Of a stretch of DNA of 64,000 bases, positions 1 through 19,809 are shown piece after piece. A program made the position numbers and the translations under genes. The DNA is from Candidatus Binatia bacterium (GTDB lineage Bacteria > Desulfobacterota > Binatia > UBA1149 > CAITLU01). The DNA lies in assembly GCA_036493895.1 (NCBI GenBank), contig DASXOZ010000011.1, positions 626 through 64,625 of the forward strand, given 5' to 3'. The notes beneath the pieces were generated by a model. That model had not been told where the DNA came from and searched no databases. It saw only the letters and a list, made by a program, of their open reading frames with translations. Positions within the stretch are counted from its first letter, which is position 1, and the number at the start of each line of letters is the position of its first letter.

Positions 1-337
1 CGCAGTTGCCGCCCGAAAGGGCATCGGAGCCGTCGGCGCCGATGTAGATGCCGACGTCGAAACGGTTAGCGTGTCCGGAGCTGATGTTGACCGTGCCGTC
101 GAACGTGAACGTGTCGCCGACGAACTCGCACGCGTGAATCACATTGGTGACGGAGATCGACGAGACGGAGAAGTCGTTGGCGGTGCAGTTCAGGTTGGTC
201 AGGCCGGAGGCTGCCGCCATGCAGTTGGCGGCGTGCGCGGCCGGTGTGCTCGAGATCACGCCGATGGTGGCCAGCAACGCGATCGTCGCCGACAAGCTCG
301 TGCTGCGGCGCCTGGCCGAAGACTCGCGAAACTTCAT
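1..337 (-). CDS. Secreted Cys-rich protein, N-terminal fragment; third paralog of the two giant repeat proteins (runs off the window edge)
   Basis: Manual translation from ATG at 337 (GGGGG SD-like upstream) gives MKFRESSARRRSTSLSATIALLATIGVISSTPAAHA-ANCMAAASGLTNLNCTANDFSVSS...RFDVGIYIGADGSDALSGGNC with no stop to the edge. It has a signal-peptide-like N-terminus (AHA cleavage) and shares LNCTANDF and R(F/Y)DxGxxxGADGxDAL motifs with the head of the 12904..19809 protein. Confidence 0.85.
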   Translation of the reverse strand, partial: MKFRESSARRRSTSLSATIALLATIGVISSTPAAHAANCMAAASGLTNLNCTANDFSVSSISVTNVIHACEFVGDTFTFDGTVNISSGHANRFDVGIYIGADGSDALSGGNC

Positions 338-706
338 GTAGACCCCCTGGACGTCGCGGCGTGGCCGCGCCTGCTGTTTTGCGAGTTCCCGATGGAAGCC
401 GCGTTCCCTGGTTTTTTTGCCGCGCCCGCCTCGCGCCCGAGCCGCGTCCCCTGCAGCGACAGACAAGTCGCCGCGCCGACTGCGCCAGCCCCAAACTGGC
501 ACCCCCCGGATTGGGGGACCATGGCTGGACGTATTGTCAGTTGCAAGGAAAAAATACCTGAATTTGCGGGAAAAATTCGTCACGCTGGCCGACCGGCGAA
601 ACCGGGATTGCGCGGCTGCAAGGGTCCGCCGGGGGTGGTCGGGAGTTCCTGCAAGAGCCGGCTGAGAGCGGTGCCGGCACGCCGGCCGGACCAGGCTTCG
701 TGCCTG

Positions 707-2338
707 TCAGTCGTCGAGCCCGAGCTGGCGCCGAAGCTCTCGCTTGACGATCTTCCCCATCGAGTTGCGCGGCACGCTGGCGACGAAGTGGAAGCGTTCG
801 GGCACCTTGTAGCGGGCCAGGGCGGTCGCGCAGACTTCGCGCAGCTCCTCGGCTGTCACGCTGCCTGCTCCGTCGGCAACCTGGACGGCCGCGACGACCC
901 GCTCGCCGAGCCTTTCGTCAGCAATTCCGAATACCGCACACGCCGCAACGCGCGGGTCCGCATGCAGAACCCTTTCGACTTCGGCCGGGTAGACGTTGGC
1001 TCCGCCTCTGAGAATGAGGTCGCCGCGGCGGCCGCGGATGTAGAGCTGGCCGGAGGCGGGGTCGCGCACACCGAGGTCGCCGGTGTGCAGCACGCCGTCC
1101 ACCAGAGCCGCCGCCGTCTGGTCCGGCTTGTTCCAGTAGCCGAGCATCGGCGTGTACACGCCGGCAAACGGTCCTTGCGACGAAGGGGCGACGCAGATTT
1201 CGCCGACCTCGCCGTCGGCAACCTGGCGTCCGTTCTCGTCGAGCAGCCGGATTTCGATCTGCGGTAGCGGCCGGCCGATCAGGCCGGGCTGCGGCGGCGT
1301 GTCGCCCGGTGAGCGGGTCACGGCGGTCGGTGCCTCGGTCATGCCGTAGCCGATCGACACGTCGGCGCCGAACCTCTCGCGGTACAGGCGAAGAAAAGAC
1401 GGCGGACACTCGGCGCCGCCCACTTCGGGCCGCACGAGGCTGGCCAGGTCTGCCCCGCTTACCTGCGGGTGCGTCAGAAGGTCGTGGTAGGTGGCCGGCA
1501 CCGCGGCAAAATGCGCGACGTTTTCGTTTCGCACCCACTCGGCGACGCCCTCGGCATCGACGCGGTCGATGCACACGCATGTCCCGTCGATCTGGAACAC
1601 CAGCAGCGGCACGAGGACCATCAGGTTGAGCACGCCGAGCGGCAGCAGCACCCCGTGGATCTGCCCGATCGGATGGGCGCCGGTCGCAGCAGCGACGGCG
1701 CCGGGCAGCACGAGGTTGTGCTGGCTGTGCACGGCGCCTTTGGGGAAACCCGTCGTGCCGCTCGTGTAGGCAATCGCCGCGGGCGCGAACGGATCGATCG
1801 CGACTCGCTCGGCCACGTCGTTTCCGGCGTGCGCAAGGGCAGCATTCCACTTCGACTGCGCATCGCCGGGATCGGCATCGAGGACGTGGCGCAGCGACGG
1901 CACCGCGGCGCGCACGCCGTCCACCTGCGCGCACATCGCGCGATCGCCGAGGAACACGCACGCTTCGCAATCGGCGAGGATGTACGCTTTTTCGGCGGGC
2001 GCCAGCGGCCTGGCCACGCCCACCCACAGTGCTCCGAGGCGCATCGTCGCGAGGAATGCAATGACGATCTCGGCGTGGTTGCCGAGGCTTGCTGCAACTC
2101 GGTCTCCCGCACCGACGCCGAGCGATGCAAGCGCTGCCGCAGCGCGGTCGACGGCAACGTCGAGCGTGCGGTACGTGTAACGCGAGTGCCTGGCTACCAG
2201 CGCGGTCCTGTCCGGGCAGCGTGCAAGCGGTCCTGCCAGGATGTCGGCGACCGTCTGCGGCCCTGTTCCCGGAATCGGCGGCCGCGACGCGGGCACGACG
2301 AGATGGCGGGCGCGGACGAGCGATGCCGTGTCTTCCAC
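707..2338 (-). CDS. AMP-binding acyl-CoA synthetase (class I adenylate-forming enzyme)
   Basis: YTSGTTGFPKG P-loop, GYGMTE, LHTGDLG, GRRGDLILRGGANVYPAEVE and C-terminal GKIVK. Start placed at GTG 2338, just after the upstream SDR stop; the longer ORF start overlaps the SDR. Confidence 0.9.
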   Translation of the reverse strand: MEDTASLVRARHLVVPASRPPIPGTGPQTVADILAGPLARCPDRTALVARHSRYTYRTLDVAVDRAAAALASLGVGAGDRVAASLGNHAEIVIAFLATMRLGALWVGVARPLAPAEKAYILADCEACVFLGDRAMCAQVDGVRAAVPSLRHVLDADPGDAQSKWNAALAHAGNDVAERVAIDPFAPAAIAYTSGTTGFPKGAVHSQHNLVLPGAVAAATGAHPIGQIHGVLLPLGVLNLMVLVPLLVFQIDGTCVCIDRVDAEGVAEWVRNENVAHFAAVPATYHDLLTHPQVSGADLASLVRPEVGGAECPPSFLRLYRERFGADVSIGYGMTEAPTAVTRSPGDTPPQPGLIGRPLPQIEIRLLDENGRQVADGEVGEICVAPSSQGPFAGVYTPMLGYWNKPDQTAAALVDGVLHTGDLGVRDPASGQLYIRGRRGDLILRGGANVYPAEVERVLHADPRVAACAVFGIADERLGERVVAAVQVADGAGSVTAEELREVCATALARYKVPERFHFVASVPRNSMGKIVKRELRRQLGLDD

Positions 2339-2352
2339 GCCGATCCCGCTGC

Positions 2353-3117
2353 CTACGGTCTCATGTACCAGCCGCCGCTGATGTTGATCGCTTCGCCCGT
2401 GATGAAGGCCGAGCGGTCCGAGCCGAGGAAAGCCACGAGCTCGGCGACTTCTTCGGGCTTGCCGAAGCGTCGCAGCGGCGTGCGATCGACTTCGCTCTGG
2501 AACTGGTCGGCATAGCGGGCGACGAACTTCGACCAGATCAGGCCCGGCGCGATCGCGTTGCAGCGCACGCCGAACGGGCCGCCCTCGAACGCGACACTGC
2601 GCGTGAGGCCGAACAGCGCGGCTTTTGCACACGCGTACGGCGCCTCGCGGCCTTCGTTCGCATCGCCGAGCCAGCCGGCGATCGACGAGATGTTGACGAT
2701 GGCGCCGCGACGCCTCTCGATCATCCCCGGCAGCAGCAGCCGCGTCAGGTGGAATGCTGCCGTGATGTCGACGTCGAGCACGCGGTCCCAGTCGGTCATC
2801 GTGAATTCGCGAATCGGCGCGAGCACGTTTTCGGCCGCGTTGTTGACGAGCACGTCGACCGGACCGAGCGACGCTTCGATCTCGCCGATGACGTCGCGCA
2901 TGCGCGCGCGGTCGGCGATGTCACCGGGAAACGCAAGCACCCGCGCGCCGGTGTCGGCGGCAATCCGATGCGCGACTTCCCGGCAACGCCGTTCGTGGAT
3001 GTCGACCACTGCCACCTGTCCGCCTTCGCGCGCGATGCGTTCGGCGCTGTGGCTTCCGATACCCGCACCGGCGCCGCCGGTGACCAGCGCGACCTTGCCT
3101 TCGAAGTCTCTCGACAT
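2353..3117 (-). CDS. SDR family oxidoreductase
   Basis: MSRDFEGKVALVTGGAGAGIG, VNNAA, YACAK (YxxxK), NAIAPG. It is the 3' part of ORF 2353..3915; true ATG at 3117. Confidence 0.92.
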   Translation of the reverse strand: MSRDFEGKVALVTGGAGAGIGSHSAERIAREGGQVAVVDIHERRCREVAHRIAADTGARVLAFPGDIADRARMRDVIGEIEASLGPVDVLVNNAAENVLAPIREFTMTDWDRVLDVDITAAFHLTRLLLPGMIERRRGAIVNISSIAGWLGDANEGREAPYACAKAALFGLTRSVAFEGGPFGVRCNAIAPGLIWSKFVARYADQFQSEVDRTPLRRFGKPEEVAELVAFLGSDRSAFITGEAINISGGWYMRP

Positions 3118-3173
3118 GGGGGACTGCCTTTTTTCTGACGCTCGCTCGGGCGGTGGATATACGGGCAGTCGCT

Positions 3174-4370: not shown

Positions 4371-4450
4371 CCGGCGGTTTCCTTCCTGCGGGGGCGCCTG
4401 CGGCGCCCCCGAATTCGCGTGCGCCTGCGGCCCCGACGAGTCACCCGAAC

Positions 4451-4464
4451 AAGAACATGTTCTA
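4451..4464. promoter_or_regulatory. KstR-like palindromic operator, site A
   Basis: AAGAACATGTTCTA (minus strand TAGAACATGTTCTT), about 80-95 bp upstream of the amidohydrolase ATG. The 16-mer CAAGAACATGTTCTAG is identical at 29555-29570. Confidence 0.7.
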
Positions 4465-4571: not shown

Positions 4572-7500
4572 TCAGCGGACCGACGTCGAAGAAGCCGTGC
4601 TGGCCGAAGCGCCACTGCCGTCGCTCACCGTCACGCTGACCGGCAGCGAAGTTCCGCTCGCGAGGCTGCTGGAGACCAGCGTCCTTACTTTCACCGATCC
4701 GCTCGCCGAGGCGAGGTTGCTGAAGACGACGTCGTTTCCGGAGACCGTCGCACCGTTCGGCGTCGTGCTTTGCTCGCTCATGCCGTCGGGCAGCGTCAGC
4801 ACCAGCGTTCCGGTGCCGGTGAGATTGGCGTAGTCGGCCGAGACGTCCGACGTCAGGCCGGACGTCACCGTCCGCGGCAGCGTCAGCGACACGGTTGGTC
4901 CCGACGCCGTCGAGCCGTCACGTACGATCGTCGAAGCCTGGCCGTTGTACGTCGTGCCGCTGCCGTCCAGCGCGGAGGCGGCGATCTGCAGCGTCGAGCC
5001 CGCAACCGCGCTCGAGCTGACGGCAACGCGCAGCTTGACCGATCCGCTGGTGTCCGTGAGCCGCCACTGCGCGCCGTCGGGCAGCAGCGACGCGCTCGGC
5101 ACGGCCAGCACCGGCGTCATCTCCGGCGGCAGTGTCATGGTCAGCGTCGAGGGACTCACCAGTCCCGAGTACGAAATCGCCACGTCGGTCGTCGTGCCCG
5201 GAGTCACCGAGCGCAGCGCCGTCACGTCGAGGGCCGGAGTGCCGGACCCGCCGCCCGTCGTGCCGAGGCCGATCACGGTCTGGGTCTCGGATGCAACGAT
5301 GGTGCCGGTCTCGTCGCTCATCGTCATGCTGCCGACGAGCACGGTGCCGGTGGCGACGTCCGCCGCGATCTGTGCGTCGATCTTGACCGACCCGGACGGG
5401 TCCATCAGGTCGCTGAACGTCAGGGTGCGCTCACTGCCACCGCTCGGCGCCGGCTGCGAGCGCAGCACCGTCACTTCGTCCGGCAGCGAGATCGTCAGCT
5501 GGTTGTGCCCGACGGCTTCGCGGTAACGCGCGGTGTAGCGCAGCGTCAGGCCCGCGCGACTGTAGGTCTGCGAGCGGATCGACGCGAACAGCTTGTTCGA
5601 CGCCGTGACGACGCTGGTCTGCTCGCACACGGCGTTGTTGCCCGCACCGTCGTTCATCGTCGCACTGCTCGGCAGCACGGTCTGGTCGGGAGCGAGCGGG
5701 CTCACCTGCGTGTTCACCTTCACCTTGCCGGCGGTGGCCGCGAGCGAGTCCCAGAACAGCGTCTGGCCCTGCTGCGCAGTCGGCGTCGGATAGGCGCTGA
5801 TGATCGTCACATCGTCGGGCATGGTCAGGTTGACCGAGTTGCTCTCCGAGCCGTTCTTGTAACGCAGCTCGTACTTCACGAAGCTGCCGGGCGTCGCGTA
5901 GATCTGCGCGCGCAGGAAGCACGACAGCGTAGCGCCGCCGGTGCCGTCGTCGCGCACGTGGAACACGTTGTCGGCGGTCGCGTAGTGCCCGGCCGGATCC
6001 GACAGCGTCGCGACGTTCAGGACCGACGCGCCGGAGCTCATCGTGGGATCGATCGTCGCGGTGATGAAGCCCTGGCCGACCGTGCCCGCCTTGAACGGGT
6101 CGGCAGTGAAGGTCGCAGTGTTGCCTGAGACGGACGCGGAGGCGTCGCCGGACGACGCCGACACGAGCGTCAGTCCCGCCGGCAGCGGATCGCTGATCGT
6201 CACGTCGGCCAGGTCGTCGGCGCACGCGTTCGACCATTGCAGCGTGTACTGGATCGTGCCGCCCGGGTTGTCGTTGCCCGAGTGCACCTTGCGCAGCGCG
6301 ACCGGGCAGAGGTCCGCCTGCGAACGCACGTTCAGCTTGTCGGTGGCCTCGGCCGACGGGATGCCGGCGGTCGTCAGCGACGCCGTGTTGACGATCGTCG
6401 TCCCCGGCTCGGTGCTGTCGGCGATGCGCACCGTGATCGTGCCCTGGCCGACGTCGCCGCCGCCCCACGAATCCATGTGGAACGTGACGGTGTTGCCGCT
6501 GATCGTCGTCGTCGCCACCGGCGACGAGGCCGACTCGACGGTCATGCCGCCCGGAATCGGATCGGTGACGTTCAGATCCGAGACCGGATTTCGGCACGAG
6601 TTCGACCACTGCAGCGTGTACGTGACCTCGCCGCCCGGCGTGGTATCGCCGGTGTGGGTCTTGCGCAGCGATGCCGCGCAGTCTTCGCAGACCTGGTTGG
6701 TCTGGCAGACCCCGGAAAGACAGGTATCGGGCTGGTCGCAGGAGCTGGAGGCCTGCGAACCGCACGCCGATCCGTCCGGCTTGAAGCCGTCGGACGGGCA
6801 AGAGCCGTTGCCGTCGCAGTTCTCGGCGACGTCGCACTCACCGGCGGCGAGGCGGCACACGATAGACGCGGATGCGTGATTGACCAGGCAGCTTCCCGAA
6901 CCGTCGCAGGTATCGGGTGCGTCGCAGATCGAGCTGCTCGAGCTTCCGCACGCGAAACCTGCCGAGCGGAAGGCGTCGGCAGGGCACGACGTCGAGGCGC
7001 CGGTGCAGTTCTCGGCGGCGTCGCACTGCGAAACCGCCGCGCGGCAGGTCGTGGCCGATGCCGCGAACGAATCGGCGGTGCAGGTGGCCGAGGCGCCGGT
7101 GCAGTTCTCGGCGACGTCACAGACACCGCCCGATCCGCGGCACACGGTCGTCGAAGCGACGAACGCGTCGGCCGGGCAGGACGCCGAGGCGCCGGTGCAG
7201 CTCTCCGCGACGTCGCAGACTCCCGCCGACGGGCGGCAGGCCGTGGTCGAAGAGGCGAACGTGTTGGCGGGACACGCGGCCGACGTGCCCGTGCAGTTCT
7301 CGGCAACGTCACAGATGCCGCCCGATGCGCGACACGTCGTCGTCGATGCGACGAACGAATCGGCGGGGCAGGCGCCGGAAGTGCCGGTGCAGTTCTCGGC
7401 CGGATCGCAGATTCCGGCCGACGGACGGCAGACGCTCGTCGATGCGGTGAACGAGTCGGCCGGACACGCTGCTGCGATGCCGCTGCAGTTCTCGGACGGA

Positions 7501-10500
7501 TCACAGATGCCGGTCGAAGCGCGGCACAGCGCCGCCGCCGACAGGAACGCGTCTCCAGGGCACGCCGCGGAAGTTCCGCTGCAGTTCTCGGCGGTGTCGC
7601 AGACTCCGGCGGAGGGGCGGCACGTCGTCGTCGAAGAGACGAACGCGTCGCCGGGGCAGGCGCCGGAGGTTCCGGTGCAGCTCTCGGCTACGTCGCAGAT
7701 GCCGCCGGATGCGCGGCACGTCGTCGTCGACGAAACGAACGCATCGGCAGGGCAGGCGGCAGCAGTGCCGGTGCAGCTTTCGGGCGTGTCGCAGACTCCC
7801 GTGGAGGTGCGACACGTCGTCGTCGACGAAACGAACGCGTCGGCCGGGCACGCGCCGGAGGTCCCGGTGCAGTTTTCGGCGACGTCGCAGACGCCGCCGG
7901 ATGCGCGGCATGTCGTCGTCGACGCGGTGAATGTATCGGCAGGGCACGACGCTGCGGTACCGGTGCAGCTCTCGGACGGGTCGCAGACGCCCGTCGATGC
8001 GCGGCACGTCGACGTCGAAGAGACGAACGCATCCGCCGGGCAGGCGCCGGAGGTTCCGGTGCAGTTTTCCGCAACGTCGCAGATGCCGCCGGATGCGCGG
8101 CAGACGGTCGTCGATGCGGTGAACGTATCGGCAGGGCACGCCGCTGCGGTTCCGCTGCAGTTTTCGGACGGATCGCAGACGCCGGTCGATGCGCGGCACA
8201 GCGTGGTCGACGCATCGAACGCATCGGCCGGACACGCGCCGGAAGTGCCGGTGCAGTTTTCGGCGACGTCGCAGACTCCGCCGCTCGGGCGGCACACCGT
8301 CGTCGATGCGGTGAACGTATCGGCGGGGCACGCCGCTGCGGTTCCGCTGCAGTTTTCGGACGGGTCGCAGACGCCGGTCGATGCGCGGCACGCGGTGGTC
8401 GAGGCGACGAAAGAATCGGCCGGGCATGTCGACGACAGTCCGGTACAGTTCTCGGCGACGTCACAGACGCCGCCCGAGGCGCGGCACGTGACGGTGGGAA
8501 GCGCGAAGAGGTCGAGCGGGCACGAGGCGAGCAGGCCGGTGCAGTTCTCGGCCACGTCGCAGATGCTGACCGCATCGCGGCAAACGGTGGCGGAGCTGAC
8601 CAGGACATCGGCCGGGCAGGTCGCCGAGGTTCCGGTACAGTTTTCGGCGACGTCGCAGACGCCGCCGGACGCGCGGCAAGTGGTAGTGGACGCGACGAAC
8701 GCATCGGCGGGGCACGCACCAGAAGTGCCGGTGCAGTTTTCGGCGACGTCGCAGACACCGCCGGACGCGCGGCAAACGGTCGTGGATGCCGCGATCGCAT
8801 CGGCGGGACATGCCGCGGCGGTTCCGGTGCAGTTCTCGGACGGATCGCAGACGCCGGTCGACGCGCGGCACAGCGTCGTCGATGCGACGAACGCATCGGC
8901 CGGGCACGCGCCGGAAATTCCGGTGCAGTTTTCCGCCACGTCGCAGACGCCGGCCGAAGCGCGGCACGTGACGGTGGGAAGGGCGAAGACGTCGAGCGGA
9001 CACGTCGCGAGCAGGCCGGTGCAGTTCTCCGACGGATCGCAGACGCCGGTGGATGCGCGGCACAACGTGGTCGACGCGACGAACGCGTCGGCCGGACACG
9101 TCGACGACGTCCCGGTGCAGTTTTCGGCGACGTCGCAGACGCCGGCGATTGAGCGGCAAAGAGTCGTCGATGCAGAGAACGCATCGGCAGGACAAGCGCC
9201 GGAAGTTCCGGTGCAGTTCTCGGCCACGTCGCAGACGCCGGTGGCTGCGCGGCAAGTCGCCGTCGAGGCGACGAACGAGTCGGCCGGGCACGCCGCTGCC
9301 GTTCCGGTGCAGTTCTCGGCCACGTCGCAGACGCCGGTCGATGCGCGGCACGCGGTGGTCGAGGCGACGAACGAATCGGCAGGACATGTCGACGACAGTC
9401 CGGTGCAGTTTTCGGCGACGTCGCAGACGCCGGCCGAGGCGCGGCACGTGACGGTGGGGAGCGCAAAGAGGTCGAGCGGGCACGAGGCGAGCAGTCCGGT
9501 GCAGTTCTCGGCGACGTCGCAGATGCTGACCGCATCGCGGCAATCGGTCGTGGAACTGGCCAGGGTTTCGGCCGGGCAGGTCGCCGAGGTTCCGGTGCAG
9601 CTCTCGGCGACGTCGCAGACACCGGTCGTCGCGCGGCACGTCGTCGTCGAAGACACGAAGGCGTCGGTGGGGCAGGCGGCGGAAGTTCCGGTGCAGTTCT
9701 CCGCGACGTCACAGACGCCGGCCGAGGCGCGGCACGCGGTGGTCGAGGCGACGAACGAATCGGCAGGACACGAGGCCGAAACCCCGGTGCAGTTCTCGGC
9801 AACGTCACAGATGCCACCCGACGCGCGACAGGTCGTTGTGGACGCGACGAAGCTGTCGGCGGGACATGCGGCCGAGGTTCCGGTACAGTTCTCGGCGACG
9901 TCGCAGACACCTCCCGAGGCGCGGCAGGTCGTCGTGGAGGCGACGAACGCATCGGCCGGGCACGCACCGGTCGTTCCGGTGCAGTTCTCGGCGACGTCGC
10001 ACACACCGCCCGTCGAGCGACAGACCGTCGTCGATGCGGAGAACGCATCGGCGGGACATGCCGTCGCAGTTCCAGTGCAATTCTCTGACGGATCGCAGAC
10101 GCCGGTCGATGCGCGGCACGCGGTGGTCGAGGCGACGAACGAATCGGCAGGGCATGTCGACGACAGTCCGGTGCAGTTTTCGGCGACGTCGCAGACGCCG
10201 GCCGAGGCGCGGCACGTGACGGTGGCAAGCGCGAAGAGGTCGAGAGGGCACGAGGCGAGCAGGCCGGTGCAGTTCTCGGCGACGTCGCAGATGCTGACCG
10301 CGGTGCGGCAGACGGTCGTGGATCCGGCAAGGGCATCGGCAGGGCAGGCCGCCGAAGTTCCGGTGCAGCTCTCGGCGACGTCGCAGACACCGGTCGTCGC
10401 GCGGCACGTCGTCGTCGAAGTCACGAAAGCGTCGGTGGGGCAGGCGACGGAAGTTCCGGTGCAGTTCTCCGCGACGTCACAGACGCCGGCCGAGGCGCGA

Positions 10501-12404
10501 CACGCGGTGGTCGAGGCGACGAACGAATCGGCAGGACACGAGGCCGAAGTCCCGGTGCAGTTCTCGGCAACGTCACAGATGCCACCCGACGCGCGACAGG
10601 TCGTTGTCGATGCGACGAAACTGTCGGCGGGGCATGCGGCGGATGTTCCGGTGCAGTTCTCGGCGACGTCGCAGATGCCGCCCGAGCTGCGGCAAGTCGT
10701 GGTGGACGCGACGAAGCTGTCGGCCGGACATGCGGCGGATGTTCCGGTGCAGTTCTCGGCGACGTCACAGACACCGCCCGCGGTGCGGCATGTCGTCGTC
10801 GAGGCTACGAAGCTGTCGGCGGGGCATGCGGCCGACGTGCCGGTGCAGTTCTCGGCGACGTCGCAGATTCCGGCCGAGGTGCGGCACGCGGTGGTCGAGG
10901 CAACGAAAGCATCGGCGGGGCATGCGGCCGACGTCCCGGTGCAGTTTTCGGCGACGTCGCAGATTCCCGCCGACGAGCGGCACGCCGTGGTCGAGGCAAC
11001 GAAAGAATCGGCGGGGCAAGCCGCCGATGTCCCGGTGCAGTTCTCGGCGACGTCGCAGATTCCAGCCGACGAGCGGCATGCCGTGGTCGATGCTACGAAA
11101 GAATCACCGGGGCACGCCGCCGAAGTTCCGGTGCAGTTCTCGGCGACGTCGCAGATGCCGCCAGAAGTGCGGCATGTCGTCGTCGAGGCTACGAACGAGT
11201 CGGCAGGGCAGGCCGCCGATGTCCCGGTGCACTTCTCGGCCACGTCGCAGATGCCGTTCGTCGTGCGACACGTCGTTGTCGAGGCTACGAATGAGTCGGC
11301 CGGGCACGCTGCCGAGGTGCCGGTGCAGTTTTCGGCCGCGTCGCAGACCCCAGCCACGGCGCGGCACGCAGTCGTCGATGCGACGAACGAGTCCGACGGG
11401 CATGCAGCGGAGGTCCCGGTACAGTTTTCGGCACTGTCGCAGATTCCGGCGGAGGCGCGGCAGGCGGTCGTCGAGGCGACGAAGGAATCGGCAGGACACG
11501 CGCCCGAGGTCCCGGTGCATTTCTCGGCATTGTCGCAGATGCCCGCCGAGTTGCGGCACGTCGTCGTCGAGGCGACGAAGCTGTCGGCCGGACAGGCTGA
11601 AGAAGTTCCCGTGCAGGTTTCGGCCGTGTCACAGATGCCGGACGCCGAGCGGCACACGGTGCCGGCCGTCACGAAAAAGCCGCCCGAGCAGCAGGCGCCC
11701 GTCGTGCAGTGCGTGACGGCGATCGCCGGGCTCGGCTCGACCTGGACACATTTGCACTTGGAGTTGGTCGCCGGCCACGCCTGCGTGTAGTCCGCGCAGT
11801 TGTTGCCGGCGTTGTTGTCGTAGCTGGAGCAGATGTTCAGATCGAGGAAACCGTTGTTGTCGGAGTCGTAGCAGCTGACCGTGATGTCACCCGTGTTGAT
11901 GACGAAATTGCCGGTGACCGAGGCCGAGCCCGGGTAGTCGGGGCAGAAGTCGCCGTCGATGTTCTGGCCCTGGTCATAGGGCGCAGGGGCGCCGGGAGTG
12001 CGGATGAGATCGATGTAGCACTGCGTGCTGGTCTCGGCGCTGACGCCGTCCTTCGCGATGTAGACGGCGCCGTCGTAGCGCTGCGGGGATGTCGGGGCGA
12101 TGGTGATGTCCGCGTGGAACGTGACGGTGTCGGTGGGAAGCCCGTTGCAGCCGCCGCCGGTGACGACCGCGTTCGACATTCCCGCGACGCCGAAGTCCGC
12201 GGCCGTGCAGCTCGAGATGGATTTACCGTTCAGCGCGGCTCGCGGCGTGATGCACAGGTCGGGGCCGTTCGGATTGACGACCTGGGCGCCGGCGCCGGCG
12301 CCGCTGCCGAGCAATGCGATCGATGCGGCGAGCAGCGATAGCGCGACGCGCGAACGCCTGCTCGACGAAGGAGATGACCGCCGCGAAGAAGAAGAAACCG
12401 TCAT
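4572..12404 (-). CDS. Giant secreted disintegrin-like repeat protein 1 (2610 aa): signal peptide, Cys-rich head, 49+3 Cys4 repeats, six DUF11/Ig-like modules
   Basis: ATG 12404 has AAAGGGGG SD; MTVSSSSRR...VALSLLAASIALLGSGAGAGA looks like a signal peptide. GACCSGGFFVTAGTVCR leads into tandem CRxxxGxCDxxExCTGxxxxCPxDxF repeats. C-terminal LRKTHTGDTTPGGEVTYTLQWSN...VTDPIP is a DUF11-type module. Confidence 0.9.
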   Translation of the reverse strand: MTVSSSSRRSSPSSSRRSRVALSLLAASIALLGSGAGAGAQVVNPNGPDLCITPRAALNGKSISSCTAADFGVAGMSNAVVTGGGCNGLPTDTVTFHADITIAPTSPQRYDGAVYIAKDGVSAETSTQCYIDLIRTPGAPAPYDQGQNIDGDFCPDYPGSASVTGNFVINTGDITVSCYDSDNNGFLDLNICSSYDNNAGNNCADYTQAWPATNSKCKCVQVEPSPAIAVTHCTTGACCSGGFFVTAGTVCRSASGICDTAETCTGTSSACPADSFVASTTTCRNSAGICDNAEKCTGTSGACPADSFVASTTACRASAGICDSAENCTGTSAACPSDSFVASTTACRAVAGVCDAAENCTGTSAACPADSFVASTTTCRTTNGICDVAEKCTGTSAACPADSFVASTTTCRTSGGICDVAENCTGTSAACPGDSFVASTTACRSSAGICDVAENCTGTSAACPADSFVASTTACRSSAGICDVAENCTGTSAACPADAFVASTTACRTSAGICDVAENCTGTSAACPADSFVASTTTCRTAGGVCDVAENCTGTSAACPADSFVASTTTCRSSGGICDVAENCTGTSAACPADSFVASTTTCRASGGICDVAENCTGTSASCPADSFVASTTACRASAGVCDVAENCTGTSVACPTDAFVTSTTTCRATTGVCDVAESCTGTSAACPADALAGSTTVCRTAVSICDVAENCTGLLASCPLDLFALATVTCRASAGVCDVAENCTGLSSTCPADSFVASTTACRASTGVCDPSENCTGTATACPADAFSASTTVCRSTGGVCDVAENCTGTTGACPADAFVASTTTCRASGGVCDVAENCTGTSAACPADSFVASTTTCRASGGICDVAENCTGVSASCPADSFVASTTACRASAGVCDVAENCTGTSAACPTDAFVSSTTTCRATTGVCDVAESCTGTSATCPAETLASSTTDCRDAVSICDVAENCTGLLASCPLDLFALPTVTCRASAGVCDVAENCTGLSSTCPADSFVASTTACRASTGVCDVAENCTGTAAACPADSFVASTATCRAATGVCDVAENCTGTSGACPADAFSASTTLCRSIAGVCDVAENCTGTSSTCPADAFVASTTLCRASTGVCDPSENCTGLLATCPLDVFALPTVTCRASAGVCDVAENCTGISGACPADAFVASTTLCRASTGVCDPSENCTGTAAACPADAIAASTTVCRASGGVCDVAENCTGTSGACPADAFVASTTTCRASGGVCDVAENCTGTSATCPADVLVSSATVCRDAVSICDVAENCTGLLASCPLDLFALPTVTCRASGGVCDVAENCTGLSSTCPADSFVASTTACRASTGVCDPSENCSGTAAACPADTFTASTTVCRPSGGVCDVAENCTGTSGACPADAFDASTTLCRASTGVCDPSENCSGTAAACPADTFTASTTVCRASGGICDVAENCTGTSGACPADAFVSSTSTCRASTGVCDPSESCTGTAASCPADTFTASTTTCRASGGVCDVAENCTGTSGACPADAFVSSTTTCRTSTGVCDTPESCTGTAAACPADAFVSSTTTCRASGGICDVAESCTGTSGACPGDAFVSSTTTCRPSAGVCDTAENCSGTSAACPGDAFLSAAALCRASTGICDPSENCSGIAAACPADSFTASTSVCRPSAGICDPAENCTGTSGACPADSFVASTTTCRASGGICDVAENCTGTSAACPANTFASSTTACRPSAGVCDVAESCTGASASCPADAFVASTTVCRGSGGVCDVAENCTGASATCTADSFAASATTCRAAVSQCDAAENCTGASTSCPADAFRSAGFACGSSSSSICDAPDTCDGSGSCLVNHASASIVCRLAAGECDVAENCDGNGSCPSDGFKPDGSACGSQASSSCDQPDTCLSGVCQTNQVCEDCAASLRKTHTGDTTPGGEVTYTLQWSNSCRNPVSDLNVTDPIPGGMTVESASSPVATTTISGNTVTFHMDSWGGGDVGQGTITVRIADSTEPGTTIVNTASLTTAGIPSAEATDKLNVRSQADLCPVALRKVHSGNDNPGGTIQYTLQWSNACADDLADVTISDPLPAGLTLVSASSGDASASVSGNTATFTADPFKAGTVGQGFITATIDPTMSSGASVLNVATLSDPAGHYATADNVFHVRDDGTGGATLSCFLRAQIYATPGSFVKYELRYKNGSESNSVNLTMPDDVTIISAYPTPTAQQGQTLFWDSLAATAGKVKVNTQVSPLAPDQTVLPSSATMNDGAGNNAVCEQTSVVTASNKLFASIRSQTYSRAGLTLRYTARYREAVGHNQLTISLPDEVTVLRSQPAPSGGSERTLTFSDLMDPSGSVKIDAQIAADVATGTVLVGSMTMSDETGTIVASETQTVIGLGTTGGGSGTPALDVTALRSVTPGTTTDVAISYSGLVSPSTLTMTLPPEMTPVLAVPSASLLPDGAQWRLTDTSGSVKLRVAVSSSAVAGSTLQIAASALDGSGTTYNGQASTIVRDGSTASGPTVSLTLPRTVTSGLTSDVSADYANLTGTGTLVLTLPDGMSEQSTTPNGATVSGNDVVFSNLASASGSVKVRTLVSSSLASGTSLPVSVTVSDGSGASASTASSTSVR
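6951..11654 (-). repeat. Coding tandem array, 49 x 96 bp (32 aa, 4 Cys per unit)
   Basis: Counted in the translation. The first-unit Cys codon at 11654 and the first variant-unit Cys at 6950 are exactly 49 x 96 bp apart. Three variant units follow to about 6690. Confidence 0.95.
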
Positions 12405-12903: not shown

Positions 12904-15900
12904 TCAGCGAACCGACGTGGTACCGGCGGCGCTGGCGCTGGCACCGGTCGTGTCACCGATCTGGCCACTGACAGCCAGCGAGCTGCCGCTTGCGGCGCTT
13001 GCCGGGATGAGCACGCGCACCTTGGCCGTGCCCGATGCGTCGGTCAGCCCGTTCCAGGTCACGTTGCTGCTGCTGATCGCCGCACCGCTCGGCACCGTGC
13101 TCTGGGCCGTGACGCCGGACGGCAGTGTGATGACGAGGTGCCCGGTGCCCTGCAGGCCGGCCCAGTCGGCGTAGAAGTCCGACGTGAGTCCCGCGGTCAC
13201 CGTGCGCGGCAGCGTCAGCGTCATCGACAGGCCCGGCGACGATGTCGTGTCGTCACGCACGATCGTCGAGGCCTGCGCCGTCTGGCTCGCTCCGCTGCCG
13301 TCAGTCTCGGATCCGTTGATGACCAGCGCCTTGCCGGCCGCGGCGGACACACCGACCATCACGCGCAGCTTGATCGAGCCGCTGCTCGTCGCGATGCCGG
13401 ACCAGGTGGCCTGGCCGTCGGTCAGCGTGCCTGACGGCACCGCCAGCGTCGGTACGAGCTCCGGCGGCAGCGTCACCGTGATCGTCGCAGGCGGCTGCAG
13501 GGCGTCGTAGCGGATCGTGATGTCGGTCGTCGTCCCCGGCGTCACCGACTTGACGGTCGTCAGCGTGAGCGCCGAGGTGCCGCCCGCGGTCGAACTCGCG
13601 TCCCCGACCACCGTCTGCGTTTCGGCGCCGACGATGTCCTTGGTTTCGTCGGTCATCGTCAGGCTGCCCACCAGCACGGTGCCGTTGGCGACGTTGCCGA
13701 CCTGCGTGTCGATCTTCACGACGCCCGCCGGAACCGGCAGGTCTTTGAAGATCAGCGTGTTGTCGGTTCCGCCGCTGGGCGCCGGCAGCGCGCGCAGCAC
13801 GGTGACGTCACTCGGCAGTGAGACCGTCATCTGGTTGTGGCCGACTGCATCACGGTAGCGCGCGGTGTAGCGCACGCCGAGGCCCGGCCGGCTGTGGGTC
13901 TGCGCCTTGATCGACGCGAACAGCACCTGCGAACGCGAGACCACGCCCTCGTGCTCGCAGACGGCAACGTCACCGGCGTGGTCGTCGACGAACGCGCTCG
14001 TCGACAGCACGGTCTGGTCGGTCACCAGCAGTCCGACCTGGGTCTCGACCGACACCTTGCCGGCCGTCAGCGCCAGGTTGTCCCATTCCAGAGTCTGCCC
14101 GTCCTGCTTCGACGGCGGCGGGAAAGCGCTCTCGATGTTGACCTCGTCAGGCAGCGTCAGCGACAGCGCGTTGTTCTCGGTGCCGTTGCGGTAGCGCACC
14201 TGGTACTTCACGAAGCTGCCGGGCGACGCGAACACCTGGCCCGACACGGCGCACGACAGGCTCGTCGTTGCCGTGCTTCCGCCTCGGACGCGGAACAGGC
14301 TGTCGGCCGTTTCGTGGTGACCGGCCGGGTCGGAGAGCGTCGCGACGTTGAGGATCGACTCGCCGACGGGTGCCTGCGGATCGATCGTCGCGGTGATCAG
14401 GCCCTGGCCGACGGTGCCGGCGCTCCAGCTCGCCATGTGGAAGATGGCCGAGTTGCCGTCGATCGTGACGTCGGCATCCGACGACGTGGCCGACAGGAGC
14501 AGCACTCCGTCCGGCATCGGATCGGAGATCGTCACGTCGGTGACGTCGGCCTGGCACGCGTTCGACCACTGCAGCGTGTACTGGATCTGGCCGCCCGGGT
14601 TGTCGTTGCCCGAGTGCACCTTGCGCAGCGAGACCGGGCACAGCTCGTCGATGCTGCGTACCGTCAGCTTGTCGCTGCCGGTCGCGCTGTGCGAAGCGTC
14701 GTCGACGTAATGGGCGACGTTCTCGATCGTCGAGCCCGGCGACGCATCGTCGGCAACCCTGGCCGTGATCGTGCCCTGGGCAACGTCGCCGCCGGCAAAC
14801 GTGCCCATGTTGAACGTCACGGTGTTGCCGGCAGTCGACGCCGACGCGTCCGGCGAGCTTGCCGACACCAGCTCGAGTCCGTTCGGCAGCGTATCGCTGA
14901 TGACGGCGTTCGAGATCGGATCGCGGCAGGAGTTCGACCACTGCAGTGTGAACTCGACCGTGCCGCCGGGGGTCGTGTCGCCGTTGTGGATCTTGCGCAG
15001 CGTAACCGAGCAGTCCTCGCAGATGATGTTGTCCTGGCACGAGCCGGCAAGGCAGGTGTCGGGCTTGTCGCACGTCGTCTCGGCCGGGGAGCCGCACGGC
15101 GAGCCGTCGGACTTGACGGAGTCGCCGGGGCAGTGGCCGAAGCCGTCGCAGTTCTCGGCAACGTCGCAATCGCTGGCGGCCGGGCGGCAGACCTTGGAGA
15201 TCGGCGCCAGGTTGCTCTGGCAGGTGCCGGAGCCGTCGCAGGTGTCGGCGCCGTCGCAGACGCTTTGCGCCGAGCTGCCGCAGCTCGAGCCGGACGGCTT
15301 CTTGCCGTCGGCGGGGCAGCTGGCCGCTGCGCCGTTGCAGTTCTCGGCTGCATCGCACTGGTCGGCTGCCGGACGGCAGACGGTGGAAGCACCGAGGAAA
15401 CCGTTGGCCGGGCACGTCGCGCTGACGCCGGTGCAGCTTTCGGCGACGTCGCAGACGCCGGAGGCCGGGCGGCACACGGTGGACGCAGCGACGAAGCTGT
15501 TGGCCGGGCACGCAGCCGAAGCTCCCGTGCACTGCTCGGCGACGTCGCAGACCCCACCTGCTGCGCGACAGGTGACCGAGGCCGATGCGAAGTTGTCCGG
15601 CGGACAGAATGCGAACGAGCCGGTGCAGTTCTCGGGAACGTCGCACACACCGGCCGAAGCACGGCAGACCCTGGACGCGGACGCGAGTGCGTCGCCGGGG
15701 CACGCAGCCGAGTTGCCGGTGCACTGCTCGGCAACGTCGCAGACGCCTGCCGCGGCACGACACGTGGTCGTCGCCGAGACGAAGGTGTCGCCGGGGCAGG
15801 TGGCAGAGCCGCCGGTGCAGTTTTCCGCGACGTCGCAGACGCCTGCGCTCGGCCGGCACGTGGTGGCCGCACCGGCAAACGTATTGGCAGGGCAAAGCGG

Positions 15901-18900
15901 CGATGCACCGGTGCAGTTCTCGGCGATGTCGCAGACACCGGCCGCTGCGCGGCAAGTCACTGCAGCCGAAAGGAAGGCATCGGCCGGACAGGCGCCGCCT
16001 GCGCCGGTGCAGTTCTCCGGCGTGTCGCAAATGCCGGCCGGCGCACGACAGACGGTGGTCGGCGGCAGCAGCGTATCGGCCGGGCAGCTGCCGCTTGCGC
16101 CGCTGCAGTGCTCGACCGGATCACACACTCCGGTGGAGACACGACAGATCGTCGCTGCGGACAGGAACGTATCGACCGGACACGTCGCGCCGCTGCCGGT
16201 GCAGTTCTCGGACGCATCGCAGACGCCGGTCGACGCGCGACAGGTCGTCGCTGCCGACTGGAACGAATTGCCGGGGCACGAGGCCGATGCGCCGCTGCAG
16301 TTCTCCGCGACGTCGCAGACGCCGGCTGACGCGCGACAGAGCGTCGCAGCGCTGAGGAATCCGTCGCCGGGGCAGCTCGCGCTGATTCCGGTGCAGTTCT
16401 CGGGCGTGTCGCAGACACCGGCCTTTGCGCGGCACACGGTGGCCGCGCTCAGGAACGAGTTGGCCGGACACACAATCGAGGTGCCGGTGCAGTTCTCATC
16501 GGTGTCGCAGACGCCGGCGGCTGCGCGGCACGTGAAGTTCGAATTCGCGAACGAGTCGGACGGGCAGGCGGCCTCGGTGCCCGTGCAGTGCTCGGCCAGG
16601 TCGCAGACGCCGGCCGTACCGCGGCACGAGGTCGTCGTGCCGAGGAACAGGTCGGACGGACACGCCGCCGACGTGCCGGTGCAGTTCTCCGCGATGTCGC
16701 AGACGCCGGCGACGGCGCGGCAGGTCGTCGTCGACGCGAGGAAACTGTCGGCCGGGCATGCAACCGATGCGCCCGTGCACTTCTCGGCCGGATCGCAAAC
16801 GCCTGCCGAAGGACGGCACGTCGTCGTCGAGGAGACGAAGACATCGGTCGGGCACGCGGCAGAGGTGCCCGTGCAATCTTCGGCAACGTCGCAGATGCCG
16901 CCCGACGCGCGGCAGGTCGTGGTCGAGGAAACGAAAGCATCGGCCGGACACGCGCCCGAGGTTCCGGTGCAGTTCTCGGCGACATCGCAGACGCCGCCGG
17001 TCGAGCGGCAGACCGTCGTGGACGCGGTGAACGTATCGGCAGGGCATGCCGCTGCAGTTCCGCTGCAGTTTTCGGACGGGTCGCAGACGCCGGTCGATGC
17101 GCGGCAGAGCGTGGTCGATGCGACGAACGCATCGGCAGGACACGCACCGGAGGTTCCGGTGCAGTTCTCGGCAACGTCACAGACGCCGCCGGACGGGCGG
17201 CAGACGGTCGTCGATGCGGTGAATGTGTCGGCAGGGCATGCCGCCGCGGTTCCGCTGCAATTTTCGGATGGATCGCAGACACCGGTCGATGCGCGGCAGA
17301 GCGTAGTCGACGCAACGAACGCATCGGCCGGGCACGCGCCCGAGGTTCCGGTGCAGTTCTCGGCGACGTCGCAGACGCCGCCCGACGAACGGCAGACGGT
17401 CGTCGATGCAAGGAAGGTGTCGCCTGGACAGGCCCCGGAAGTTCCCGTGCAGTTCTCGGCCGGATCGCAGACACCGCTCGAAGCGCGACAGGTCGTCGTC
17501 GAGGCGACGAATGCATCGGCCGGACATGCAGCGTCGGTTCCGGTGCAGCTCTCGGAAGGATCGCAGACCCCGGTGGACGCACGGCAGACCGTCGTCGATG
17601 CGACGAACGTATCGCCAGGACAGGCGCCGCTGGTGCCGGTGCAGTTTTCGGCGACGTCGCAGATACCGCCGGTCGAGCGGCAGACCGTCGTCGACGCGGT
17701 GAACGTATCGGCGGGGCACGCCGCTGCGGTTCCAGTGCAATTTTCAGACGGATCGCAGACGCCGGTCGACGCGCGGCACAGCGCGGTCGACGCCACGAAC
17801 GCATCGGCCGGGCATGCGCCGGAGGTTCCGGTGCAGTTCTCGGCGACGTCGCAAACGCCGCCCGACGCACGGCAGACCGTCGTCGATGCGGTGAACGTAT
17901 CGGCGGGGCAAGCCGCAGCCGTTCCGCTGCAATTCTCGGACGGGTCGCAGACGCCGGTCGATGCGCGGCACAGCGTGGTCGACGCGACGAACGCATCGGC
18001 CGGGCACGCGCCGGAGGTTCCGGTGCAGTTCTCGGCGACGTCGCAGACGCCGCCCGACGAACGGCAGACGGTCGTCGACGCGGTGAACGTATCGGCAGGG
18101 CACGCCGCCGCGGTTCCGCTGCAATTTTCGGACGGGTCGCAGACGCCGGTCGATGCGCGGCAGAGCGTAGTCGATGCGGCGAACGCATCGGCAGGACACG
18201 CGCCGGAGGTTCCGGTGCAGTTCTCGGCGACGTCGCAGACGCCGCCCGACGAACGGCAGACGGTTGTCGATGAGGTGAATGTATCGGCCGGGCACGCGGC
18301 GGAGGTTCCGGTGCAGTTTTCGGCAACGTCGCAGATACCGCCCGAGGAACGGCAAGTGGTCGTCGAAGCGACGAAAGCGTCGGCCGGGCACGCGGCGGAG
18401 GTTCCGGTGCAGTTCTCGGCAACGTCGCAGATGCCGCCCGAGGAACGGCAAGTCGTCGTCGAAGCGACGAAAGCGTCGGCCGGGCACGCGGCGGAGGTGC
18501 CGGTGCAGTTCTCGGCAGCGTCGCAGACGCCGCCCGAGGCGCGGCACGTCGTGGTCGAAGCGACGAAAGCGTCGGCCGGGCACGCGGCGGAGGTGCCGGT
18601 GCAGTTTTCGGCAACGTCGCAAAGGCCGCCCGAGGCGCGGCAAGTCGTCGTCGACGCGACAAAGGCGTCGGCCGGGCACGCGGCAGAGGTGCCGGTGCAG
18701 TTCTCGGCGACGTCGCAGATGCCGCCCGATGCACGGCAAGTCGTCGTCGATGCGACGAAGGCGTCGGCCGGGCACGCCGCCGACGCGCCGGTGCAGTTCT
18801 CGGCGACGTCGCAGATGCCGCCCGAAGCGCGGCAGGTCGTCGTCGAAGCGACGAAGGCGTTGGCTGGGCATGCGGCGGAAGCGCCGGTGCAGTTTTCGGC

Positions 18901-19809
18901 AACGTCGCAGATGCCGCCCGATGCGCGGCACGCCGTGGTCGATGCGACGAACGAGTCGGCCGGGCACGCGCTCGAAGTGCCGGTGCAGTTTTCCGCGGTG
19001 TCGCAGACGCCGGCCGATGGACGGCACACGGTGGTGCTCGGCAGGAAAGAGCCGGCCACGCAGCAGGCACCAACCACGCACGTAGGTACCACTATCTGGG
19101 GAATCGTATCTACATGGGCGCAATTGCACTTCGAGGCGGTTTGAGGGTTGGCCTGATCCACGCTGTTGCAAATGGGGGCAGTGTTGTTGGCCCACGATGT
19201 ACAGACGGCGAGATCGAGGATGCCGTCACTCCCCGCGACCTGGGTAGCGTTGACGATGAAATCCGAGCACGCCAACGTCACGCCGGTGAAGTGGGAAGAG
19301 TAGGTGCCGCTGCTATTGCCGTCCGGGCATGAGTCGCCGTCCTGCACCCACGGTTGACCGGGAATGGGGTACGTGTCGGTCAGCAGGGTTGCCGAGCAAG
19401 TACCGGTAAGCGCATCCACACCGTCTGCGCCCAGCCACAAGCCGATGTCGTAGCGATCGGGTGCATTGGACGTGGCGATCAAATCTCCATCGATCGTGAT
19501 CGTGTCCGAAGGGCTGGTGCAGATGATGTCGGCCGAGTTGACCGTGTCGATGTTAATGTGGGTGACCGCGAAGTCGTTGGCCGTGCAGTTCAGGCTCGTG
19601 CCGGCCTGGTCCTCCAGGCATATATGGGGGTAGACGGCCCAAGCGTCTCTGCTCCAGGCGACTGTGAGTATTGTTACTGCGACTGCAGCCGACGCGACGC
19701 GTGTGAAGAACGCGCGCCCCCCGTACGTACGCCCCCGCGTATTCATGCCGGACACAGTCGTGAGCCTGGCAGCCACCCACGGCTTCCGAGAACAGGTTGC
19801 CTCAGTCAT
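12904..19809 (-). CDS. Giant secreted disintegrin-like repeat protein 2 (2301 aa), paralog of 4572..12404
   Basis: ATG 19809 has AAAGGGGGA SD (alternative ATG 19746); hydrophobic VASAAVAVTILTVAWSRDAWA segment. GACCVAGSFLPSTTVCR is followed by 39+3 Cys4 repeats and the same six-module C-terminus (LRKVHSGNDNPGGxIQYTLQWSNAC shared). Confidence 0.9.
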   Translation of the reverse strand: MTEATCSRKPWVAARLTTVSGMNTRGRTYGGRAFFTRVASAAVAVTILTVAWSRDAWAVYPHICLEDQAGTSLNCTANDFAVTHINIDTVNSADIICTSPSDTITIDGDLIATSNAPDRYDIGLWLGADGVDALTGTCSATLLTDTYPIPGQPWVQDGDSCPDGNSSGTYSSHFTGVTLACSDFIVNATQVAGSDGILDLAVCTSWANNTAPICNSVDQANPQTASKCNCAHVDTIPQIVVPTCVVGACCVAGSFLPSTTVCRPSAGVCDTAENCTGTSSACPADSFVASTTACRASGGICDVAENCTGASAACPANAFVASTTTCRASGGICDVAENCTGASAACPADAFVASTTTCRASGGICDVAENCTGTSAACPADAFVASTTTCRASGGLCDVAENCTGTSAACPADAFVASTTTCRASGGVCDAAENCTGTSAACPADAFVASTTTCRSSGGICDVAENCTGTSAACPADAFVASTTTCRSSGGICDVAENCTGTSAACPADTFTSSTTVCRSSGGVCDVAENCTGTSGACPADAFAASTTLCRASTGVCDPSENCSGTAAACPADTFTASTTVCRSSGGVCDVAENCTGTSGACPADAFVASTTLCRASTGVCDPSENCSGTAAACPADTFTASTTVCRASGGVCDVAENCTGTSGACPADAFVASTALCRASTGVCDPSENCTGTAAACPADTFTASTTVCRSTGGICDVAENCTGTSGACPGDTFVASTTVCRASTGVCDPSESCTGTDAACPADAFVASTTTCRASSGVCDPAENCTGTSGACPGDTFLASTTVCRSSGGVCDVAENCTGTSGACPADAFVASTTLCRASTGVCDPSENCSGTAAACPADTFTASTTVCRPSGGVCDVAENCTGTSGACPADAFVASTTLCRASTGVCDPSENCSGTAAACPADTFTASTTVCRSTGGVCDVAENCTGTSGACPADAFVSSTTTCRASGGICDVAEDCTGTSAACPTDVFVSSTTTCRPSAGVCDPAEKCTGASVACPADSFLASTTTCRAVAGVCDIAENCTGTSAACPSDLFLGTTTSCRGTAGVCDLAEHCTGTEAACPSDSFANSNFTCRAAAGVCDTDENCTGTSIVCPANSFLSAATVCRAKAGVCDTPENCTGISASCPGDGFLSAATLCRASAGVCDVAENCSGASASCPGNSFQSAATTCRASTGVCDASENCTGSGATCPVDTFLSAATICRVSTGVCDPVEHCSGASGSCPADTLLPPTTVCRAPAGICDTPENCTGAGGACPADAFLSAAVTCRAAAGVCDIAENCTGASPLCPANTFAGAATTCRPSAGVCDVAENCTGGSATCPGDTFVSATTTCRAAAGVCDVAEQCTGNSAACPGDALASASRVCRASAGVCDVPENCTGSFAFCPPDNFASASVTCRAAGGVCDVAEQCTGASAACPANSFVAASTVCRPASGVCDVAESCTGVSATCPANGFLGASTVCRPAADQCDAAENCNGAAASCPADGKKPSGSSCGSSAQSVCDGADTCDGSGTCQSNLAPISKVCRPAASDCDVAENCDGFGHCPGDSVKSDGSPCGSPAETTCDKPDTCLAGSCQDNIICEDCSVTLRKIHNGDTTPGGTVEFTLQWSNSCRDPISNAVISDTLPNGLELVSASSPDASASTAGNTVTFNMGTFAGGDVAQGTITARVADDASPGSTIENVAHYVDDASHSATGSDKLTVRSIDELCPVSLRKVHSGNDNPGGQIQYTLQWSNACQADVTDVTISDPMPDGVLLLSATSSDADVTIDGNSAIFHMASWSAGTVGQGLITATIDPQAPVGESILNVATLSDPAGHHETADSLFRVRGGSTATTSLSCAVSGQVFASPGSFVKYQVRYRNGTENNALSLTLPDEVNIESAFPPPSKQDGQTLEWDNLALTAGKVSVETQVGLLVTDQTVLSTSAFVDDHAGDVAVCEHEGVVSRSQVLFASIKAQTHSRPGLGVRYTARYRDAVGHNQMTVSLPSDVTVLRALPAPSGGTDNTLIFKDLPVPAGVVKIDTQVGNVANGTVLVGSLTMTDETKDIVGAETQTVVGDASSTAGGTSALTLTTVKSVTPGTTTDITIRYDALQPPATITVTLPPELVPTLAVPSGTLTDGQATWSGIATSSGSIKLRVMVGVSAAAGKALVINGSETDGSGASQTAQASTIVRDDTTSSPGLSMTLTLPRTVTAGLTSDFYADWAGLQGTGHLVITLPSGVTAQSTVPSGAAISSSNVTWNGLTDASGTAKVRVLIPASAASGSSLAVSGQIGDTTGASASAAGTTSVR
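15283..19026 (-). repeat. Coding tandem array, 39 x 96 bp (32 aa, 4 Cys per unit)
   Basis: The first-unit Cys at 19026 and the first variant-unit Cys at 15282 are exactly 39 x 96 bp apart. Same consensus as array 1. Confidence 0.95.

Follow-up and report, generated by a model that had tools for sequence, protein, structure and literature searches.

The gene cut off at the start of a Candidatus Binatia contig encodes a 974-residue secreted protein with a head of an unnamed family, probably a displayed binding module

The 64,000 nucleotides of Candidatus Binatia DNA analyzed here (referred to as the window) begin inside a gene, of which positions 1 to 337 hold the 5' end on the minus strand. 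An earlier note had taken this end for a third paralog of two very large repeat proteins encoded in the same window (proteins 1 and 2), sharing with them a conserved, unannotated head domain, and had suggested that diversified heads are mounted on a common stalk. We asked what the truncated gene encodes and what its head does. In the reading that we favor, and that we consider rather probable, positions 1 to 337 are the 5' end of a gene for a 974-residue secreted protein whose head, from an unnamed family, is a displayed binding module. The following features of the window are relevant to this question.

2..583, minus strand: open reading frame of the edge gene, from the ORF listing; its 3' end is open and runs off position 1
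230..337, minus strand: start codon and signal peptide of the edge gene, residues 1-36 (MKFRE...TPAAHA), read from the sequence rather than by a predictor
2..229, minus strand: first 76 residues of the edge-gene head, by BLASTP to the heads of proteins 1 and 2
338..706, no strand: intergenic region, from the stop of the AMP-ligase gene to the edge-gene start
4572..12404, minus strand: protein 1, 2610 amino acids, with a signal peptide, the head, at least 47 disintegrin-like 32-residue units and a DUF11/CLIPPER region
12270-12404, minus strand: signal peptide of protein 1
11706..12269, minus strand: head of protein 1, 188 amino acids, residues 46-233, from alignments and the HMM (278.8 bits)
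12904..19746, minus strand: protein 2, 2280 amino acids from MNTRGR, with a signal peptide, the head, at least 33 disintegrin-like units and a DUF11/CLIPPER region
19636-19746, minus strand: signal peptide of protein 2
19078..19635, minus strand: head of protein 2, 186 amino acids, residues 38-223, from alignments and the HMM (274.0 bits)

The likeliest start of the edge gene is the ATG at position 337, with AGGGGG 7 nt upstream; a promoter scan of the region 338..706 gave no match to a sigma-70 consensus. Read by eye, the N terminus, MKFRESSARRRSTSLSATIALLATIGVISSTPAAHA, has a basic n-region, a hydrophobic core and an AHA cleavage-type site, and a signal peptide of this build with an AxA-type site can be read in all three proteins. 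After the signal peptide, the translation continues as ANCMAAASGLTNLNCTANDFSVSSISVTNVIHACEFVGDTFTFDGTVNISSGHANRFDVGIYIGADGSDALSGGNC up to the window edge. The strings previously quoted from it (NLNCTANDFSV, DTFTFDG and RFDVGIYIGADGSDALSGGNC) were all found in the minus-strand translation, and the motifs quoted for protein 1 and those quoted for protein 2 were present in their respective translations. By BLASTP, the 112-residue edge fragment was 43% identical to the N terminus of protein 2 over 80 residues (E=9e-18) and 31% identical to protein 1 over 105 residues (E=4e-7), and a six-frame HMM scan of the window and of the contig described below found exactly three copies of the head. These similarities far exceed what chance would give, and the third paralog exists. 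A scan of the 112-residue fragment against genome contigs gave no match.

Between protein 1 and the edge gene, positions 707-4541 of the window encode an amidohydrolase_2 protein, an SDR protein and an AMP-dependent ligase, all on the same strand. No link of these three metabolic genes to the surface proteins was seen. One member of the 90%-identity cluster of the SDR protein (gene at 2353-3117) is labeled Ca. Limnocylindrales (Chloroflexota), whereas a partial protein identical to the edge protein (see below) is labeled Ca. Binatia, which leaves some doubt about the taxon label.

The complete edge gene was obtained from L001, a 12.2-kb JGI short-read metagenome contig reached by an exact look-up of the neighboring SDR protein. 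L001 was 100% identical to the window across the 621 nt that the two share (window 80-700). It carries the following features of the edge gene.

9243-12167 of L001, plus strand: whole edge gene, 974 amino acids (protein P0003); the part beyond the window is 9579-12167
9971-10861 of L001: tandem array with a 153-bp period, 5.8 copies and 81% matches, encoding a 51-residue, 8-Cys repeat
11295-12164 of L001: C-terminal 290 residues of the edge protein, modeled by AlphaFold2 as a beta-helix (pLDDT 94.3)

The edge ORF goes on for 862 residues past the window edge, repeats included, and an early stop just outside the window, which would have left the fragment without repeats, was thus not found. The complete head, residues 37-207 of the edge protein, contains ADTCGDYDGN, FDMNVCTSWDVNKNHTC and PSAGSKCQC, that is, every motif listed earlier for proteins 1 and 2. 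It is followed by a stalk of about six 51-residue, 8-Cys units (GSCDDGNFCTVGDTC.DG.C.G..N.C.D.N.CTTDSC...LQ.CSN....) and about three degenerate copies, and the repeat motif in the L001 array is CDDGNFCT..DTC.DG.C...CDDNNDCTTDSC. Disintegrin units and DUF11 are absent from the completed protein. The 51-residue Cys repeats are a second, different type of Cys-rich stalk in one genome. Against Dicty_CTDC (PF00526), the edge stalk scored 22.4 bits (cutoff, 27), and that of a relative, P0005, scored 31.2 bits, over the cutoff.

The C-terminal 290 residues of the edge protein had no match in a Pfam search. Their AlphaFold2 model (pLDDT 94.3) is a right-handed beta-helix with a flanking alpha-helix. 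Every one of the 31 best PDB matches of this model was a DUF3494 ice-binding protein, with a probability of 1.00, E values down to 7e-7 and TM scores up to 0.78 when normalized to the target; two relatives of the edge protein, P0239 and P0241, scored 24.2 and 24.9 bits against the corresponding family, PF11999, under its cutoff of 28.7. The domain is therefore predicted to share the beta-helix fold of the DUF3494/ice-binding family. It differs, however, in being about 290 residues long, compared with about 200 to 230 in the solved DUF3494 structures, and in having a sequence of its own without a Pfam match. Its source is also a soil-type MAG without evidence for ice binding.

A deposited partial copy of the edge protein (P0238, annotated as hypothetical in a Candidatus Binatia MAG) was 100% identical over the C-terminal 290 residues searched. 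The exact P0003 sequence is missing from the protein collection because the gene caller chose an upstream start (1017 amino acids); at positions 1-5008 of L001, the gene caller also gave a spurious 900-residue antisense ORF. Repeats break the assemblies here: L001 begins within the repeats of protein 1, and P0238 is partial and begins within the 51-residue repeats. Such breaks, together with the origin of L001 as a short-read metagenome contig, are what could be said for an assembly artefact, in which L001 misjoins the head to an unrelated repeat/beta-helix gene and the third architecture does not exist. We consider such a misjoin extremely unlikely. L001 equals the window across the 621 shared bases, and many relatives have a PxC..C..D.N.CT..C entry motif directly after the head. 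Furthermore, P0005, an independent protein of 968 amino acids, has the head, the 51-residue repeats and the beta-helix in the same order as the edge protein, which argues that the join in L001 is not chimeric.

With the complete edge protein at hand, the three full heads could be aligned end to end, with 34 to 44% identity. In proteins 1 and 2, the last Cys of the head passes straight into the first stalk unit, and the Pfam match to Disintegrin starts at residue 216 in protein 1 and at residues 207-208 in protein 2. The head was also considered as a part of the disintegrin repeats (PF00200), and this assignment was rejected because the matches start at 207-216, past the last head Cys, and the edge fragment has no such match. 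When the three heads and 24 diverse relatives were compared with Pfam-A, NCBIfam and PHROGs, only downstream-domain or spurious matches were found, and searches of all PDB sequences with the head profile gave nothing better than E=1. The match to a characterized Pfam domain that would have undone the claim of an unannotated head was therefore not found. No paper on the head was found in the literature on bacterial disintegrin/DUF11 proteins, which yielded only general papers on fibrillar adhesins and CLIPPER.

The HMM proposed in the earlier note, built from the three heads, was searched against 1.84 billion cluster representatives, and matches were counted as clusters at 50% identity. At E<=1e-3 it found 1,492 proteins, with lengths from about 200 to 3,189 amino acids; 844 of them reached E<=1e-10, and 28 reached E<=1e-30. 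A word-index homologue search with the edge head region gave no match, whereas a query with an alignment retrieved relatives; the three-head alignment scanned over genome contigs hit a single locus, in a Rudaea MAG. Named sources of the head are Acidobacteriota, Chloroflexota (Caldilineaceae), Gammaproteobacteria (Parahaliea, Rudaea and Alcanivoracaceae) and Binatia; one cultured carrier is Parahaliea mediterranea, with a homologue of 313 amino acids (P0174). The head thus defines a conserved family without annotation, and it is large, with members at the start of thousands of surface proteins in bacteria.

Heads of this family are about 165 to 190 residues long. According to the alignment of 188 members, ten Cys are conserved at 89 to 100%, and R57, D59, G61, D98, G101, D102, D121, W136, P152 and K157 are conserved to a comparable degree (89 to 100%). 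The short signature of the 188 members is CTAND[VF] / RYD.G / DG..A..G / D.CGD / C.D...DG..D...C.SW / P...SKC.C, and the full one is C..CTAND[VF]..C..GDT..RYD[IV]G..DG..A..G..C..P.P..D.CGD..C.D.D.DG..D...C.SW.N....C...A.PGT.SKC.C. The spacing from one Cys to the next is almost fixed, except in the C77-C100 loop between the fourth and fifth Cys, which spans 15 to 47 residues (SD, 8.3). Judging from this pattern, the ten Cys most likely pair into five disulfides.

A second conserved element is an acidic loop with the consensus C-x-D-x-D-x-D-G-x-x-D-x-x-x-C, in which D121 is conserved in 90% of the family, D125 in 70%, G126 in 80% and D129 in 74%. The edge copy reads TDSNGNGTFD and that of protein 1 YDSDNNGFLD; both contain a D-x-[DN]-x-[DN]-G motif and a further acidic ligand. 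Calcium-binding loops of the DxDxDG type occur in EF-hand-like loops and in thrombospondin type 3 repeats. The head loop has the same type of consensus and, on this ground, probably binds Ca2+; unlike those loops, it sits in a beta-sandwich between disulfide cysteines. In protein 2, the loop between Cys 119 and Cys 133 (window 19250-19300) carries an insertion of eight residues, FIVNATQV, within the DxDxDG-type acidic loop. This loop is the longest among the 188 family members, whereas protein 1 and the edge protein have it uninterrupted. The insertion may have cost protein 2 its putative Ca site.

An AlphaFold2 model of the head, made with a 74-sequence alignment, was all-beta with about eight strands (pLDDT, 87.8; pTM, 0.86), from which a beta-sandwich fold is predicted with confidence. 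When the model was compared with PDB and BFVD by Foldseek, as had also been proposed, no match reached E<=1e-3; the best PDB matches were generic sandwiches with E>=0.012 and TM<=0.36. Relationships to CnaA/CnaB, CLIPPER, CBM or lectin domains were also considered for the head, and they had no significant Foldseek support in PDB or BFVD. The Ig-like/CnaA-CnaB-type sandwiches of adhesins and pilins (e.g., CLIPPER, PDB 9IFR) are all-beta and resemble the head in size and in the proteins that carry them. However, where CnaA/CnaB-type domains have a Lys-Asn-Asp/Glu isopeptide triad, the head has ten conserved Cys and the DxDxDG-type loop, and neither Foldseek nor Pfam gave a significant match of the head to a CnaA/CnaB-like isopeptide fold.

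The conserved polar residues raise the question of whether the head has a chemical activity, either as a Ca-dependent hydrolase or lyase or as a self-crosslinking domain that forms an amide or ester bond between the Asn of CTAND and the Lys of SKC. N19, D20, R57, D59, D98, D102 and K157 are conserved at 85 to 99%, and in the model N19/D20 directly precede the first long strand and K157 the last one, as such a reading would have it. The neighboring stalk domains CLIPPER and SpaA do self-crosslink (PMC12617251), but the known intramolecular isopeptide bonds are all found in CnaA- or CnaB-like folds (PMC12617251), and the head model had no significant match to these folds or to any enzyme. Ca2+ ligands are also a simpler account of the conserved acidic residues. 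An enzymatic or self-crosslinking head is accordingly very unlikely in our judgment. Equally improbable, we think, is the boldest view of the family, namely, that the head is a new Ca2+-dependent, disulfide-locked class of adhesive or targeting domains with an uncatalogued fold, comprising about 1,500 or more clusters at 50% identity, possibly with a covalent lock between the CTAND Asn and the SKC Lys, and spanning Binatota, Acidobacteriota, Chloroflexota, Gammaproteobacteria and AT-rich small-genome bacteria. If true, the CTAND Asn-SKC Lys lock would be the first intramolecular isopeptide outside the CnaA/CnaB folds.

To which stalks, then, is the head attached? Downstream of it in the family are SpaA_2/3/4, DUF7507/CLIPPER_2, DUF11/CLIPPER, Dicty_CTDC-like and DUF4215 Cys repeats, disintegrin-like units and Peptidase_C25. 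Several proteins of about 260 to 280 amino acids (P0155, P0158, P0034 and others) consist of a signal peptide, the head, a Pro/Thr-rich linker, a hydrophobic helix and an Arg-rich tail; in these minimal members, the head is the sole globular domain on a membrane tether. In P0054, P0063, P0109 and P0114 (about 1,150 amino acids), the head is N-terminal on gingipain-like Peptidase_C25 proteins, as confirmed by Pfam for P0054 only. At two loci of cultured or MAG relatives, no conserved gene neighborhood was present, and the neighbors were unrelated.

These architectures do not agree with the earlier proposal, in which one common stalk would carry different heads. The third gene has 51-residue, 8-Cys repeats and a DUF3494-like tail without disintegrin or DUF11, and across the 1,492 clusters the head precedes many stalk types, a C25 peptidase, or a linker and membrane tail. 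The accompanying statement that heads diverge far more than stalks held in one comparison and failed in another. Between proteins 1 and 2, identity was 39% in the head, 59% in the C-terminal 706 residues and about 68 to 70% in the 32-residue stalk units; between P0003 and P0005, it was 53% in the head, 55% in the stalk and 39% in the C-terminal domain. Moreover, the repeat units are likely homogenized, which makes them a poor yardstick for head divergence and may in part explain why proteins 1 and 2 differ more in their heads than elsewhere. The head is thus the constant module, while stalks and tails vary, and there is no variable tip on one common stalk. Since two copies in this locus sit on disintegrin-like and CLIPPER/DUF11 stalks and one on a Cys-repeat/beta-helix scaffold, the head is a portable module.

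A portable head could still be without a ligand of its own, acting as a structural cap or folding nucleus, or as an export or assembly module, for long repetitive stalks. A cap would suit the position of the head, which is in every case followed at once by repetitive or elongated regions, and the extreme rigidity and conservation of its Cys scaffold. In proteins 1 and 2, its final Cys also abuts the stalk directly (Disintegrin match from 207-216). However, in the minimal members only a Pro/Thr linker and a membrane tail follow the head, and there is no stalk to cap; the head is also found before the nonrepetitive C25 peptidase. In addition, the stalk folds are unrelated (Ig-like domains and Cys-knot-like repeats), which makes one shared folding nucleus unlikely. 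A role as a cap or assembly module alone is therefore unlikely, in our estimation.

The role that we favor for the head, from its position, architecture and conservation, is that of a surface-displayed binding or targeting module, probably stabilized by Ca. According to this model, the head protein would be exported by Sec, and the head would fold, disulfide-locked, outside the cytoplasm. The spacer after the head would extend it away from the cell, with the N terminus as the distal end, and there the head would work as an adhesive or targeting module; the variable loop between the fourth and fifth conserved Cys would be the likeliest determinant of specificity. In 144 of the 192 representatives, the head started no later than residue 70, and 53 of the 192 ended in a hydrophobic stretch and a basic tail. 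The N-terminal position, this tail and the minimal tethered members support display and binding, as does the fact that the stalk domains after the head are those of fibrillar adhesins. Its position before a C25 peptidase fits a targeting module and suggests that, on these proteins, the head targets a secreted protease. What speaks against a distal, binding head is that it is internal, after residue 150, in 31 of the 192 representatives (about 16%), and that the DUF3494-fold domain, as modeled, could be the functional end of the edge protein.

The latter possibility leads to the opposite orientation, in which the head would be a cell-proximal attachment domain that binds an envelope component (peptidoglycan, LPS, the S-layer or an outer-membrane component) and the C-terminal parts would be distal and functional. 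No C-terminal anchor or sorting signal was recognized in the three proteins of this locus: the C terminus reads ...TSVR in both large proteins and ...SFNGF in the edge protein, with no hydrophobic tail. For these three proteins, either end could be the distal one, and a proximal head is plausible, especially for the beta-helix-ended edge protein. In ice-binding adhesins, the DUF3494 fold is the surface-binding end, and the C-terminal domain is the most divergent part between P0003 and P0005 (39%). For the family, though, the hydrophobic and basic C-terminal tail of at least 53 of the 192 representatives puts the head at the far end, and the head has no similarity to known domains that bind the wall or envelope, such as LysM, SLH, OmpA-like or PG_binding. 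Attachment to the envelope as the general function of the head is therefore unlikely in our view, and a displayed binding module remains the preferred reading.

How do these proteins relate to known surface proteins? Fibrillar adhesins have been surveyed by Monzon et al. (PMC8286594 and PMC9210967), and the CLIPPER/DUF11 domains in a further study (PMC12617251), in which CLIPPER, DUF7507 and SpaA are established stalk domains of fibrillar adhesins. Like fibrillar adhesins, the proteins described here have a signal peptide, an N-terminal nonrepeat domain and a long tandem-repeat stalk, and relatives in the head family share CLIPPER/DUF11, DUF7507 and SpaA-type stalks with them, often together with a C-terminal anchor tail. 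Of the defining traits of fibrillar adhesins, the signal peptide and the tandem stalk were found here, whereas a recognized adhesive domain and an anchor were not. The head differs from the catalogued adhesive domains of fibrillar adhesins in that it matches none of them and nothing in Pfam, the three proteins of this locus lack an anchor, and their stalks are made mainly of disintegrin-like half-domain units in two cases and of 51-residue Cys repeats in the third. The large, unnamed head family is real, and it adds a new module to modular surface proteins whose design is familiar; it does not amount to a system of a new kind.

In uncultured bacteria, the annotation of large surface proteins comes mostly from their stalk repeats, and the functional end domains are usually left blank. 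The head family would give one such domain, which opens well over 1,000 protein clusters of several phyla, a name and a signature, together with its boundaries and a confident model, and the head alignment could directly seed a Pfam entry. It would also show that a single tip has been put to use on unrelated stalks, in front of a protease and by itself on a membrane tether. The head scaffold is compact and disulfide-locked and has only one variable loop, which makes it an obvious target for a ligand screen.
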